Positions 7,326 through 60,651 of a DNA stretch of 64,000 bases are shown piece after piece. Positions within the stretch are counted from its first letter, which is position 1. The number at the start of each line of letters is the position of its first letter. Origin of the DNA: Candidatus Marinacidobacterales bacterium (lineage in GTDB: Bacteria; Acidobacteriota; Vicinamibacteria; Marinacidobacterales; SMYC01); NCBI GenBank assembly GCA_965237955.1, contig OZ250169.1, forward strand, positions 992,001-1,056,000, written 5' to 3'. The position numbers and the translations under genes are program-made. The notes under the pieces are model-generated. The model was not told the origin of the DNA. It worked only from the letters and a program-made list of their open reading frames with translations, and searched no databases.

Positions 7326-8155
7326 CGTCCTGTCCGAAAACGGGAACGGAGCGGCAAGGTCGAATCCTAGAGGCGTTCTCAAAACTCGCGGAGACCAGCC
7401 GACGCGGTACTGGCTCTGCGATAGGCGACCCCGAGCAGACCTCTCCTGCAGACCATCCGTTCCGTCCAACTGGCGCGCCCGAACTCCTATGCGGCGTCGC
7501 GGTGGTAATAGCTGAGCAAGCCGCCCAATCGCTTACGACATCGCACCTTCTCGTGAGGACTGCCGACGCATTCTTCCGCTTCGAGCAACGCGTTCCCGAG
7601 CCCTTGATGGTTGCGCTCTCCGTGATAATGATGGATGAACTCAGCGACGGCACGGCGCAGCGATTGCTCACTGAAGAAGATCATCCGCTCCAAGCACTCG
7701 CTCTTGATCGACAAAACAAACCTTTCGACGTAAGCGTTCAGATTCGGCGAACGGTGCGGCAGCCGAATGACGTCCGTTCCGGCGTGCTCGAGCAAATCGC
7801 GAAACTCCGTGGTGAACTTCTTGTCGTGGTCCAGGATGAGGAATCGCTTGCCGCGCAGAAAGCCGTCGAATGGGTCGGTGAGATTCCGACCGACCTGCAT
7901 CATGAACGGGCCATCCGGCCCCGGAGTGATTCCGGCAATGTGCACTTTTCGCGAAGACAGCTCGATGACGACGAGCACATAGTTAGGTCACGAGCCTGCG
8001 AACTGTGGCGACCTCGACGGTGAAGAAGTCGATCGCAGCAACGGTTTCCCAATGGGCGGCGAGAAACGTGCGCCACGGCGTCCGCTCACCTCGCTCCGGC
8101 GCGGGCTCGATGCCATGTTCTCGCAGAATATTGGCGATGGTGCTCCTGGCTACCG
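7326..8155 (-). mobile_element. Truncated B-family rve-integrase element (one end plus frameshifted transposase C-half)
   Basis: End CGTCCTGTCCGAAAAC at 7326; near-identical to 59300-60128; ORF pieces with DFFTVEV and [11 protein letters not shown]. Confidence 0.85.
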
Positions 8156-8266
8156 CGTCCTGTGCCAAAACTCGGCCCTTTTGAAATAGACCACAAATCA
8201 GCAGCTTAGACGCCCTTGGAATCCGCGCAGAATCGAGGGTATTTCGCGCCGCAGGGCTGGCTTCCG
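8156..8266 (+). repeat. Solo A2-type end
   Basis: CGTCCTGTGCCAAAACTCGGCCCTTTTGAAATAG...GCCCTTGGAATCCGCGCAG; same as 53075 and 57884. Confidence 0.9.
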
Positions 8267-9704
8267 CGTCCTGTGCCAAAACTCGGCCTTTTTTGAAATA
8301 GGCCATAAATCAGCAACTTAGTGTCTGTGTTTACGACCGGGCCAAGGGCCGTGGGCTTTACAATCGTCTTGGGCGGGCGGGTCGTCACCATGCAGATGAC
8401 CACCTAGTCGAGAGCGAATATCGAAGCGTGTTCCTGAAGCGGTTTCCACGCTACGCCGGTCGAGCCCGCCGAGGGGCTACCGTCGCCGGCGACCATCTAC
8501 GCGGCACGGCAGTAGTAGTTGAGAATGCCCCCAAGTCGCTCTCGCGACACGATGGGGCCAGCGTCATTCGCGCTTGCCGGCAGAGGTGTGAGGAGCTCGT
8601 TGCCGAGACCTTGGTGGTTCCGTTCTGTGTGATAGTGCACTACGTATTCGGTTACCGCTGTGCGCAGGTGTCGCTCACTGAGAGGTACGAAGCGGTCGAG
8701 ACACTCTCGACGTATGGAGAGAACGAATCTTTCCGCATATGCGTTCAGATTCGGACTATTAGCGGGAAGGCGAAGGGGCTTCACGCCTGAATCTCTCAAC
8801 AGCCCACGTACCGCCTCGGTGAATAGCGGGTCCCGGTCGTGGATGAGGTATCGCTTGCCAAGGAGGAAACCATCCCACATGTCAGTGAGGTTTCTTGCCA
8901 CCTGCTTCATCCACTCCCCGTTGGGGTCCGACGTTATCCAGGGCAGTACACCGATGCACACGCAGCGAGTGGCGATATCGATGACAAACAGGACATGGTA
9001 GCGGACGAGCCCGAACGGGTTCACAACCTCGACGATGAACAGGTCTGTCGCAGCGATGGCGCCCCAATGAGCCTTGATGAAGGTGCTCCACGACATGCTC
9101 CTGCCCCGCTCCGGCGCAGGAGCGATACCGTGCTCGGCGAGGAGCCTCTTGATAGTGTTGCGTCCGAGTTCATGTCCTAGGTTCTTGAGTGCGCCTCGCA
9201 GGCGCGTATATCCCCACGTCGGGTTCTCCCGCGCCACGCGCACAATGAGCTCACGGATGTCCTTCGCCGTCGGAGGTCGGCCTGGACTCCGGTTCTTGCT
9301 GCCATCGTACTTGGCTGCGATGAGGTGGCGGTACCAGCGCAGAAGCGTAGCGGGTGTGGCAACGGACGCAATCTGGGCCAGCGCCTCGCGGCCCAAAGCC
9401 TGGGCCTTGACGGCGAGCCTGCGCCGCTCGTCGTCCGAGAGACTGAGACGCTTGCCCCGAAGCCCGGCTCGGAGCACACGGTTCTCCTCTTGCTGGTAGT
9501 CGATCACATCCTGCTGCTGGCGGTTGACCCAGCCAGCTAGAACGAGCAGTAGGAATTGCACGTGGTACGTCATCATGGAGCTGAAGATAACACCCTCGGG
9601 CTAGACGATTGTAAAGCCTACGGCCCTTGGCCCCGGCGCAAACACAGACACTAAGCTGCTGATTTATGGCCTATTTCAAAAGGGCCGAGTTTTGGCACAG
9701 GACG
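8267..9704 (-). mobile_element. A-family element copy 1 with about 100-bp terminal inverted repeats
   Basis: Inverted ends CGTCCTGTGCC...GGCACAGGACG flank a single transposase ORF. Confidence 0.9.
8497..9576 (-). CDS. rve/DDE integrase-core transposase (9-bp insertion relative to other copies)
   Basis: HTH region [14 protein letters not shown] / HDRD / YAERF triad with about 35-residue D-E spacing. Confidence 0.9.
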
Positions 9705-10118
9705 GGGTACGATGCGCTAGATGCGCAGAGGAAAGCAGGCCTGAATAAGATCGGCAAATTCGATAGGGATTTGGGTCGCTTCGTTATCCATCGGCTTGAG
9801 GGCGACGTGCTGCGGCATGAAGACTGGGGCCACATAGCGATTCTGGACAACAGCGCCATCGTCGTCGACGGACGCACTCTGCCTGGCGAGGCCAGAAGCC
9901 CGAACGCGGCCACGTTCGGGTGGGCCAAAAAACGATACGTTGAAAAAGAGATGCAGAGGTTCAAAGACAACATTTACAAGCAGCCGGACATGTCGTCTCA
10001 GGAGCGCGCGACCGCCGTTCAAGAGTTCAGGAGAACGATCGAACAGACGTTCGATGGATTCAGCCGCGCTCGGAAATACGAGATAATGATGCGAGAGGCA
10101 TACGGACTGGAGGAGTGA
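9705..10118 (+). pseudogene. 5'-truncated hypothetical protein
   Basis: ORF begins inside the A end; stop overlaps the start of the next ORF. Confidence 0.4.
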
Positions 10119-58579: not shown

Positions 58580-58580
58580 C

Positions 58581-59299
58581 ATGAAGAAGATCCGCTGTGC
58601 CATCTATACGCGAAAGAGCGCGGAAGAAGGTCTCGAGCAGGAGTTCAACTCCCTCGATGCGCAGCGAGAAGCCTGCGCCGCGTATGTCGCGAGCCAGAAA
58701 GCGGAGGGCTGGGTGCTGCTGCCAACCGTCTACGAGGACGCGGGGCTCTCGGGAGGAACCCTGGAGCGCCCGGGCCTGCAGCGCTTGCTCGACGACATCG
58801 ACGCAGGTCTCGTCGACCGGATTGTGGTCTACAAGGTCGACCGACTGACCCGTTCCCTCTCCGACTTTGCGAAGCTCGTCGAACGGCTCGAGGCGGCCGG
58901 CGCGGTTTTCGTCTCGGTGACTCAGTCCTTCAACACCGCGACCAGCATGGGACGACTGACGCTGCATATGCTGCTGTCCTTCGCACAATTCGAACGCGAG
59001 GTCACGGCCGAGCGGATCCGCGATAAGGTCGCTGCCTCCAAGCGCAAGGGACTATGGATGGGCGGCCGCGTGCCGCTCGGCTATGAGAAGGACGGGCGCA
59101 CGCTGTGCATCAACGAGGCTGAGGCCAAAACGGTCCGGACGCTCTATGCGCTGTACCGGAAGCACGGAACGCTCCGGCAGATGAAGGCCGAGGCGGACCG
59201 TCTGAGACTGCGCACCAAGCAACGCTTCGCCGCGGATGGAACCCGGACTGGCGGGCTGCCGTTCCGTCGCGGACACCTCCACTGCCTGCTGACCAATCC
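58581..59299 (+). pseudogene. Large serine recombinase N-terminal part, cut by a B element
   Basis: CAIYTRKS.EEGLEQEFNSL, YKVDRLTRS, FAQFERE, G.WMGG.VPLGY. Confidence 0.88.
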
Positions 59300-60651
59300 C
59301 GTCCTGTCCGAAAACGCGAACGGAGCGGCAAGGTCGAATCCTAGAGGCGTTCTCAAAACTCGCGGAGACCAGCCGACGCGGTACTGGCTCTGCGATAGGC
59401 GACCCCGAGCAGACCTCTCCTGCAGACCATCCGTTCCGTCCAACTGGCGCGCCCGAACTCCTATGCGGCGTCGCGGTGGTAGTAGCTGAGCAAGCCGCCC
59501 AATCGCTTACGACATCGCACCTTCCCGTGAGGACTGCCGACGCATTCTTCCGCTTCGAGCAACGCGTTCCCGAGCCCTTGATGGTTGCGCTCTCCGTGAT
59601 AATGATGGATGAACTCAGCGACGGCACGGCGCAGCGATTGCTCACTGAAGAAGATCATCCGCTCCAAGCACTCGCTCTTGATCGACAAAACAAACCTTTC
59701 GACATAAGCGTTCAGGTTCGGCGAACGGTGCGGCAGCCGAATGACGTCCGTTCCGGCGTGCTCGAGCAAATCGCGAAACTCCGTGGTGAACTTCTTGTCG
59801 CGGTCCAGGATGAGGAATCGCTTGCCGCGCAGAAAGCCGTCGAATGGGTCGGTGAGATTCCGACCGACCTGCATCATGAACGGGCCATCCGGCCCCGGAG
59901 TGATTCCGGCAATGTGCACTTTTCGCGAAGACAGCTCGATGACGACGAGCACATAGTAGGCCACGAGCCTGCGAACTGTGGCGACCTCGACGGTGAAGAA
60001 GTCGGTCGCCGCAACGGTTTCCCAATGGGCGGCGAGAAACGTGCGCCACGGCGTCCGCTCACTTCGCTCCGGCGCGGGCTCGATGCCATGTTCTCGCAGA
60101 ATATTGGCGATGGTGCTCCTGGCTACCGTATGGCCGAGATTCGAGAGGGCGCCGCGAATGCGTGTATACCCCCACCTCGGATTTGACTTCGCCATCCCCA
60201 CCACGAGCTCGCTAATCTCGGCCATGACCCGGGGCCGTCCGGGCTGTTTCCGCCGCTCGCTCGCTGTAGTACCACTTCCGCGCAATCAGCCTTCGGTGCC
60301 AAGCCAGAAGGGTTTCCGGTGTGACGATACCGGCGACTTCTGCCAAGAGTTTCCGGCCAAGCGCCTTACCCTTTACCGCGAGCCGACGTCGCTCGTCGTC
60401 TGTGAGACGAAGCTTCCTCCCGCAAAGCCGAGCTTTGAGGACTTTGTTCTCCTCGAGCAAGTAGACCATAGCGGCCTGTTGGTCACGCTGGATCCAACCA
60501 GCGATGGTGATGACCAACAATGTCAAGGGCTGGATCGGCGTGCTCATGACCGAGGATTCTAGCTCCCATTGGCCAATCAAGCGTAGATACGTCTATTCCG
60601 AAACGTCCCGGCGAGCCGGTCTTGAGTTCGTTTGTATTTTTGGACACGACG
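59300..60651 (-). mobile_element. B-family element, full length, frameshifted transposase
   Basis: Ends CGTCCTGTCCGAAAA / TTTTTGGACACGACG; ORFs 60212..60580 and 59461..60285. Confidence 0.88.

Follow-up and report, generated by a model that had tools for sequence, protein, structure and literature searches.

DDE transposases are regarded as coupling the two ends of their element, and one-ended joints are known as side reactions. Single ends that mobilise adjacent DNA are familiar from the one-ended capture of ISEcp1 and IS91/ISCR, whose enzymes differ from the one considered here. This report concerns a clade of insertion sequences (IS) with an rve-type transposase, which were found in a patchwork of IS pieces and gene fragments in the genome of a Candidatus Marinacidobacterales bacterium. 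The patchwork occupies, from position 7326 onward, a stretch of 64,000 nucleotides (the window; G000:C1:992001-1056000) of a single-contig genome of 8.13 Mb (G000), the sole representative of its genus among the relatives compared. The ends of these elements lie at one-sided junctions that lack target-site duplications (TSDs). Judging from the sequences, each end probably transfers independently of the other, which would create deletion, replacement and duplication junctions.

IS481 is the described family most like the clade; it consists of a single open reading frame (ORF) of about 350 amino acids with a helix-turn-helix (HTH) and an rve DD(35)E domain in an element of 1.1-1.4 kb, and it gives the best NCBIfam match. 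IS481 copies normally carry a TSD, of 4 bp in SBW25 (PMC11708052) and 6 bp for ISLxc2 (PMC2516522), whereas in the clade its absence is the rule. A copy of IS481 without TSD, at the centre of a 59,943-bp duplication, is reported once (PMC11708052). IS481 ends begin with TGT (10.1101/2022.12.17.520857), as do the ends of the clade's B, E, F and H sub-families, whereas A, C and I ends start with C, not T, and Streptomyces relatives deviate at the third base. IS3/IS911 and IS30 share the DD(35)E core, and for IS30 and IS911 a single-strand transfer targeted to an inverted repeat (IR) and followed by Holliday-type processing is documented (PMC9333248). That transfer yields IR-IR junctions, whereas the targets of the clade are short non-IR motifs and its transposase has one ORF without frameshift. 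IS6/IS26 and the IS903-type IS5 elements likewise lack flanking TSDs and build up growing clusters in which cointegrates and adjacent deletions rearrange the cargo (PMC7986276). IS26 and IS903, however, have a symmetric stagger of 8-9 bp and whole, mostly direct copies, and IS6/IS26 elements measure 789-880 bp, with GG tips, an 8-bp symmetric target and direct-repeat arrays (PMC7986276); the clade elements measure 1.1-1.4 kb, have YGT tips and an asymmetric target, and occur as solo ends in random orientation. IS1202 encodes a DDE enzyme distantly related to IS481 and IS3 and has TG-type ends, but it generates direct repeats of 5-28 bp and carries Q seven residues after the catalytic E (10.1101/2022.12.17.520857), where the clade, which has no repeats, carries R286. 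In telomeric TnsB/TnsBC transposons, as in the clade, single ends mobilise or replace adjacent DNA, but there two ends are bridged and a 5-bp TSD arises (10.1101/2024.11.13.623437); the clade has a different enzyme and no telomere. IS clusters of up to 18 are typical niches of accessory regions (PMC13548323). The passages considered from 10.1101/2024.11.13.623437, PMC13343696, PMC2770080 and PMC13548323 do not describe the clade. By analogy, it works like a cross of IS26-style cluster building and IS911-style single-end transfer, and it falls outside IS481, IS3, IS6 and IS1202.

The ends were catalogued by a de novo search for repeat termini and labelled by sub-family (A, B, C, E, F, H, I, J). 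They share a pyrimidine-G-T start and an A-rich inner box. Between positions 7326 and 60651 of the window 48 related ends were found (20 A, 8 C, 4 B, 12 E, 2 I, 1 F, 1 H), whereas 20 shuffles of the window and 8 core stretches of 64 kb yielded no hit. A first-pass annotation of this DNA had counted about 45 ends in about 53 kb; its 20 A and 12 E ends agree with the catalogue, which divides the B/D and C labels otherwise. It had also proposed to collect the ends genome-wide and to compare filled with empty sites. This collection amounts to 1,227 ends (A 525, C 222, E 153, B 112, I 102, F 73, H 29, J 11), most of them solo, of which 1,114 lie in 19 patchwork tracts that cover 1.64 of the 8.13 Mb, instead of in the one growing mosaic locus that the annotation had envisaged. 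Adjacent ends are oriented nearly at random (321 convergent, 315 divergent, 276 and 255 tandem), and the head-to-head junction with a 3-bp spacer typical of abutted IS3-type ends occurs once among the 1,227. Within the tracts 31% of the DNA is present in at least 5 copies and 20% in 2-4, compared with 11% and 5% outside. The two-ended A copies, 24 in number, resemble one another at 91-99.8% (median 97%), and the full ORF survives in 18 of them; the closest copies of the element are in records of Candidatus Marinacidobacterales. Composite units of about 307-391 bp (G000:C1:3154212-3154602 and similar) combine two A ends with nested ends of other sub-families; since they recur as whole copies, the nested remnants themselves move.

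None of the 24 two-ended A copies in G000 has a TSD of at least 3 bp at offsets 0-11, nor has any of the 21 C pairs a TSD. In seven other assemblies 47 of 78 A loci are two-ended, and their boundaries show no match in 43 cases, 2 bp in 3 and 3 bp in 1. Direct repeats of 4 bp or more, up to lengths of 30-35 bp, were absent around both the 24 and the 47 A copies. Distant two-ended copies gave the same result (0 of 9, and 0 of 7 further clear ones, with one more ambiguous); ten of these 16 sit on Bradyrhizobium and Streptomyces plasmids, and the copy in Bradyrhizobium sp. 186 has an Hsp20 region on its left and a right flank that begins inside an IS66 tnpB. Isolated copies with ordinary TSDs, the counter-evidence named in the first-pass annotation, did not appear (0 of 16). 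Other families in G000 retain their TSDs: ISL3 in 40/51 and 20/21 copies, IS256 in 27/31, a second IS21 in 13/13, IS3-types in 9/11 and 9/12, and the main IS21 in 18/37 at the exact boundary, while the IS481-like copies (221 bits) have a 3-bp TSD. The annotation's control list held for ISL3 (8 bp), IS3 at 23740 (3 bp), IS51-like copy 2 (3 bp), IS1595 with its direct repeat and the rejoinable CTAG element. It was selective, as neither the intact IS21 (39123-42065) nor IS51-like copy 1 has a TSD, and the same is true genome-wide of two IS5 elements and one IS110 element. Two other arrangements were considered and rejected: split TSDs of 5-12 bp, sought among all pairs of ends, did not exceed shuffles at the boundary for A, C, B, E, F and I, and donor-derived bases at the junction received no support (mismatch at -2/-1 of 6-17% versus 1-11% in controls).

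The flanks of the clade copies do not rejoin. In G000, 385 clade ends have a flank that also occurs as an empty copy; a partner candidate was found for 7 of these, at scattered offsets and in no case within 6 kb. In the ten ordinary families compared, partner flanks were obtained for 4/10 to 59/72 of the ends, with one offset apiece. Rejoinable flanks were obtained for IS630/CTAG (59/72), IS21 (25/48), ISL3 (10/14 and 14/18), IS256 (11/20) and the IS3-types (15/19, 10/21, 6/29), each control with one main offset. Blunt insertion with contiguous flanks was discarded, as a partner at offset 0 was never found. Both flanks at one nearby empty locus within 30 kb were indicated for 8 of 26 testable clade units; three were inspected and one was real.

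When two ends attack in a coupled manner, DDE chemistry leads to a pooled target logo that is symmetric around the midpoint of the stagger. Target logos were derived from empty sites (n = 236 for A, 69 for C, 49 for B, 47 for E) and their symmetry r was determined over staggers of -3 to 12. In nine control families, TSD-forming or IS5, symmetry peaks at the true TSD length with r 0.50-0.88: at 9 bp for IS5 (0.88, 0.68), 6 bp for IS21 (0.81), 8 bp for ISL3 (0.82, 0.83), 8 bp for IS256 (0.50) and 3, 3 and 4 bp for the IS3-types (0.65, 0.73, 0.86). The best values in the clade are 0.36 for A, 0.38 for C, 0.29 for B and 0.43 for E; at a stagger of 3 they are -0.25, 0.20, 0.22 and 0.39, respectively, versus 0.65-0.73 in the IS3 controls. 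The clade nevertheless prefers its targets strongly, by up to 1 bit, with A-Y-C-C|N-S-Y for A and R-S-Y|N-C-T for B. On the lost side of the B target, positions +1 and +2 are C in 84% and T in 72% of the sites, and the kept side lacks a mirror of them. Positions 7-45 bp out from the junction carry no information in the clade logos. The target preference of the clade is thus asymmetric, in contrast to that of the symmetric controls. The target was also considered as a mimic of the end, which was rejected, with agreement at three bases only in A and none in B and C.

In the mechanism that we regard as probable, the transposase would nick one end and attach the 3'-OH of that end to a single strand at a short, preferred site, in a single strand transfer per event. 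Host replication or the resolution of junctions would then act on the branched product, as in IS30/IS911, such that one side of the target is joined to the end and kept and the other is lost. The two ends of a copy would attack target DNA independently. Two events by the ends of one copy could produce a replacement or a duplication, two events by the outward ends of neighbouring copies a cut-out gene piece, and repeated attack on older copies would leave solo ends and adjacent deletions. The tracts would be tolerant accessory regions fed with DNA from other members of the community and reshuffled by the clade together with IS5- and IS110-type elements. Two cases fit independent ends. An F copy (G000:691958-693303) lies between direct repeats of 572 bp, the one instance found in a search for long duplications of up to 100 kb around 142 two-ended units; its architecture is that of the IS481 duplication (PMC11708052). 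In G313, a genome of another genus, a 1,486-bp inner piece of a topoisomerase gene (99.7% identity) is bounded by two outward C ends.

The enzyme is a protein of about 356 amino acids with HTH_32/HTH_21 and rve_3 domains, encoded by a single ORF in place of an IS3-type orfA/orfB pair with programmed frameshift; its DD(35)E residues D178, D244 and E279 are invariant in all 12 aligned rows. The A, C and F proteins score 84-102 bits against the NCBIfam IS481 profile NF033577 (cut-off 224), and scores against the IS3 profile NF033516 are 73-85 bits (cut-off 160). The short direct target repeat of IS481 is absent from the clade copies. In a tree from a quick search with 26 rows (2 of 28 were removed for stops), in which ISfinder references are lacking and long branches meet, the 13 clade rows form one group (SH-aLRT 100) on a long stem, apart from the genome's own IS481-like (three rows), IS3 and IS21 proteins. 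These data suggest that the elements form a distinct, unclassified single-ORF DD(35)E clade related to IS3 and IS481, in line with the first-pass annotation, which had not recognised the enzymes as a well-characterised IS family. A PDB sequence search gave a weak match to Sleeping Beauty (E 0.079), and the AlphaFold model (pLDDT 58) predicts no more than an RNase H-like strand order. At least 8,000 protein candidates were scored, all homologues; where named, they are called only transposase or integrase core domain protein, and the public names of clade proteins are "integrase core domain-containing protein" or "transposase InsO family protein". Plasmid records with relatives number 97 and come chiefly from Streptomyces, Leptospira and Bradyrhizobium. 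The Streptomyces linear plasmid NZ_CP108854.1 has 27-35 clade matches, and two 40-kb stretches of it contain 3-4 ends each, far sparser than the tracts of G000. The clade was found described nowhere in a paper search whose scope did not extend to subscription journals, supplements, ISfinder and TnPedia; a prior listing is possible because ISfinder lay outside that search.

The missing TSDs also invite more conventional explanations. In an IS26- or IS903-like copy-in, both ends attack at one staggered site, cointegrates and adjacent deletions then part the TSD copies from each other or eliminate them, and solo ends result from later attacks. Such a route would account for missing TSDs and accreting clusters (PMC7986276) and is seen in the two IS5 elements of G000, which have no TSD, a symmetric 9-bp target and some ends in split TSD pairs (14/221 and 5/127). 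It predicts a symmetric logo and split pairs, of which A, C, B and E show neither, and whole copies in direct orientation, whereas the clade ends are mostly solo and near-randomly oriented; for the clade it is unlikely. A still less probable history is that of an ordinary IS graveyard, created by copy-out-paste-in with a TSD of 1-3 bp, after which adjacent deletions and recombination destroyed every intact pair. In the long-term evolution experiment, adjacent deletions after insertion account for 14 of 14 TSD-less IS150 events (PMC11708052), the tracts are crowded with other IS, and some F copies show a 3-bp match. Arguing against this history are IS3, IS21, ISL3, IS256, IS630 and ISAzo13, which retain rejoinable flanks in the same genome, as well as near-identical recent F copies and low-copy isolates that still lack them.

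The elements might instead have filled pre-existing double-strand breaks during rearrangements without cutting the target, as was suggested for two TSD-less cases, a 60-kb duplication with IS481 and a 62-kb deletion with IS5 (PMC11708052); the 572-bp case shares that architecture. However, the kept and the lost side of the junction both show a base preference of up to 1 bit, and it differs by sub-family, which points to cuts chosen by the enzyme and makes the patching of breaks very improbable. Assembly or binning chimeras at repeats could be suspected in a metagenome-derived genome with a contamination estimate of 6.2%, as no single contig spans the whole stretch and most contigs enter an end by fewer than 31 letters. 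Yet contigs with zero differences, from runs X1 and X2 of two separate studies, lead from the end at 9704 into the unique flank and extend with even depth over 18344-19162 and 21600-23768; in X2, contigs span 60625-61029, and one of 1,096 bp crosses the end at 52840 with more than 31 letters on each side. The same A junction is present in four other genomes, isolate plasmids carry the same signature, and a base-specific target motif is no product of assembly. The recurrence in other genomes and isolates outweighs the contig evidence. Assembly chimeras, which the annotation had itself named as a possible objection, do not explain the one-sided junctions, and the chance that they underlie the pattern as a whole is close to negligible.

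Several observations weigh against independent ends, or against their being peculiar to the clade. A 3-bp match flanks 4 of 16 F copies, of which the two with a known empty site both fail to rejoin. Around a centre of 1 bp the A target is in part a palindrome, with mirror images for three of its four strong positions (r 0.25), the kept-side consensus of B, E and F fits a 3-bp stagger, and small control sets have bootstrap ranges that reach into those of the clade. When reciprocal scars without ends were sought, noise made the outcome unreadable. The 572-bp case sits in a near-identical copy, so that recombination between copies could also produce it. The two IS5 elements lack a TSD in 79/80 and 50/51 intact copies and the IS110 element in 23/23, their flanks rarely rejoin (4/63, 3/69 and 9/73), and both types shred the same tracts. 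The absent TSD, symmetric 9-bp target and split pairs of IS5 indicate replicative behaviour, which means that ordinary replicative transposition alone can erase TSDs in G000. Finally, of 512 breaks inside 12 multi-copy elements, 298 have no recognised end, in part due to alignment splits or uncatalogued elements. The other breaks abut an outward clade end (106), an IS5 end (42), another IS (63) or IS110 (3). The clade is therefore the largest identified cutter, with 106 of the 214 assigned breaks, and not the sole one, and shuffling is not peculiar to its enzymes.

The IS5 elements (G000:C1:10853-11939 and 135536-136620) have about 80 and 51 intact copies and lie in the window at 27323-28127 and 49209-49475; one of the two has spread through the core genome, and their split pairs are up to 2.8 Mb apart. 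The IS110-family element (G000:C1:876953-878621) and a 166-bp miniature inverted-repeat transposable element (MITE) account for 272 ends that are confined to the same tracts and have unrelated left and right flanks; in the window they are at 16291, 36783, 48699, 52987 and 54894. The IS110 element may act in the tracts as a one-sided bridge recombinase.

The arrangement of elements and cargo in the window is as follows.
7326-8155, minus strand: partial C-type element with one end at 7326; 3' half of the transposase with an internal deletion; an A end cuts at 8156.
8267-9704, minus strand: two-ended A element; 359-aa ORF at 8497-9576; no TSD; recombinase-island DNA on the left, unique cargo on the right.
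9705-11112: single-copy cargo between two outward A ends; a 94% piece in G313 (another genus).
11129-13667, minus strand: IS21 copy inserted in an A end; its istA is cut by the A end at 13668.
13668-15097, minus strand: two-ended A element; 356-aa ORF at 13898-14968; no TSD; the right flank is a B/C-type remnant.
17280-19137: outer-membrane beta-barrel cargo bounded by an outward A and an outward B end; G318 and G323 have pieces of 97-99% identity.
19873-21625, plus strand: ISL3 control with an 8-bp TSD.
23740-25453, plus strand: IS3 control with a 3-bp TSD.
28760-31216, plus strand: intact topoisomerase gene; its inner piece 29296-30781 is the one found in G313 at 99.7% between two outward C ends.
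31386-34244, minus strand: two-ended A element with IS1595 inside its end; 356-aa ORF at 33046-34116 with D178, D244 and E279.
36881-37896: E MITE (36881-36975), cargo, E end and A end; the whole 1,023-bp unit occurs at 99% in G318 with both flanks different.
39123-42065, plus strand: intact IS21 without TSD.
42116-43888: 3' piece of a recombinase fused at 42978 to a C-type half that ends at 43888.
54679-54995: A-ended MITE of 317 bp without TSD; the empty site of its left flank is present in G315 and four runs.
54996-56763, minus strand: lgt and chalcone-isomerase-like cargo flanked on both sides by outward A ends; present three times in G000.
58476-59299, plus strand: 5' part of a serine recombinase, cut by a C end at 59300.
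59300-60651, minus strand: two-ended C element with a frameshifted transposase; no TSD; unrelated flanks.

The five two-ended copies (8267-9704, 13668-15097, 31386-34244, 54679-54995 and 59300-60651) and the lack of TSDs at their flanks had been recognised in the first-pass annotation, as had the cuts in istA at 13668 and in the recombinase at 59300. Uncut continuations of the interrupted sequences exist at other sites of the genome and appear in public runs as loose ends at 13671, 54678 and 59299.

The cargo evidently moves between genera, to judge from pieces with 94-100% identity across genera and families. The lgt piece has copies of 97-99% in 6 of 30 relatives; it has the same right-hand A junction in G308, G318, G321 and G323, and the empty site is found in G312. 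Other pieces of the window, though not all, match other genera at 94-100% in different arrangements; most of these comparisons were made with 5 or 30 genomes. The flanks of 79 element loci in other assemblies gave 95 low-copy matches of at least 95% to G000, 76 of them within the tracts, and several of these sites are filled in the other assemblies and empty in G000. G000 contains one ComEC ORF of intact length (793 codons); no match to VirB4 or Terminase_6N was found in it. No cargo was traced to a donor in a syntenic core region, and the clade ends may trim DNA that entered otherwise, rather than pull foreign DNA in. The one-ended stitching proposed in the first-pass annotation thus finds a counterpart in the one-sided junctions that are the rule in G000, the seven other assemblies and isolate plasmids, and in the passage of cargo across genera. 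Its designation as a capture system goes further than the data, which would also fit trimming by the ends and a by-product of selfish elements in place of a host-serving system.

A broader proposal, which we put forward tentatively and consider doubtful, is that this unnamed, widespread clade transfers obligatorily by single ends and that in these Acidobacteriota its solo ends and MITEs cut pieces from incoming DNA, ranging from parts of a gene to several genes, and stitch them into a patchwork of megabase size. This would resemble the capture by integrons, without att sites or TSDs, and would draw on a pool of fragments shared across genera and families. If independent ends are the rule among at least 8,000 protein clusters in several phyla, they would represent a new transposition pathway. 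They would also explain how IS copies without TSD come to lie at deletions and duplications, a question raised in PMC11708052. A fifth of this chromosome consists of pieces traded between genera. The symmetry of target logos could serve as a general sequence test that separates coupled from uncoupled transposition without experiments.

Further features of the window and genome were recorded. A DUF2924 and serine recombinase unit preceded by an A end (57884-59299 and 42116-43000) occurs in about 30 copies per genome in G000 and relatives, always starting at an A end, and may be a cargo-bearing derivative. Outside the mosaic, a 4.1-kb stretch at 2151-6297 with 69% GC contains a cytochrome c / DUF6797 gene and is 96% identical in G309 and G313, of another genus; the G309 copy abuts a C-like end. 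A second gene for ribosomal protein S1 (61295-62761, 488 aa; the canonical copy is at G000:C1:1709012) has 72-74% identity to most relatives and 91% to G308, which is not decisive for an origin as foreign cargo; G308 has the 91% partial copy twice, near contig ends. A truncated group II intron reverse transcriptase (38224-38961) adjoins the intact IS21, and a 15-bp tandem repeat of about 10 units lies within a short ORF region at 48876-49084. The search for termini also yielded three families of partly palindromic repeats of about 36 bp, with 39-132 copies each, which resemble CRISPR-type or repetitive extragenic palindromic (REP)-like repeats.

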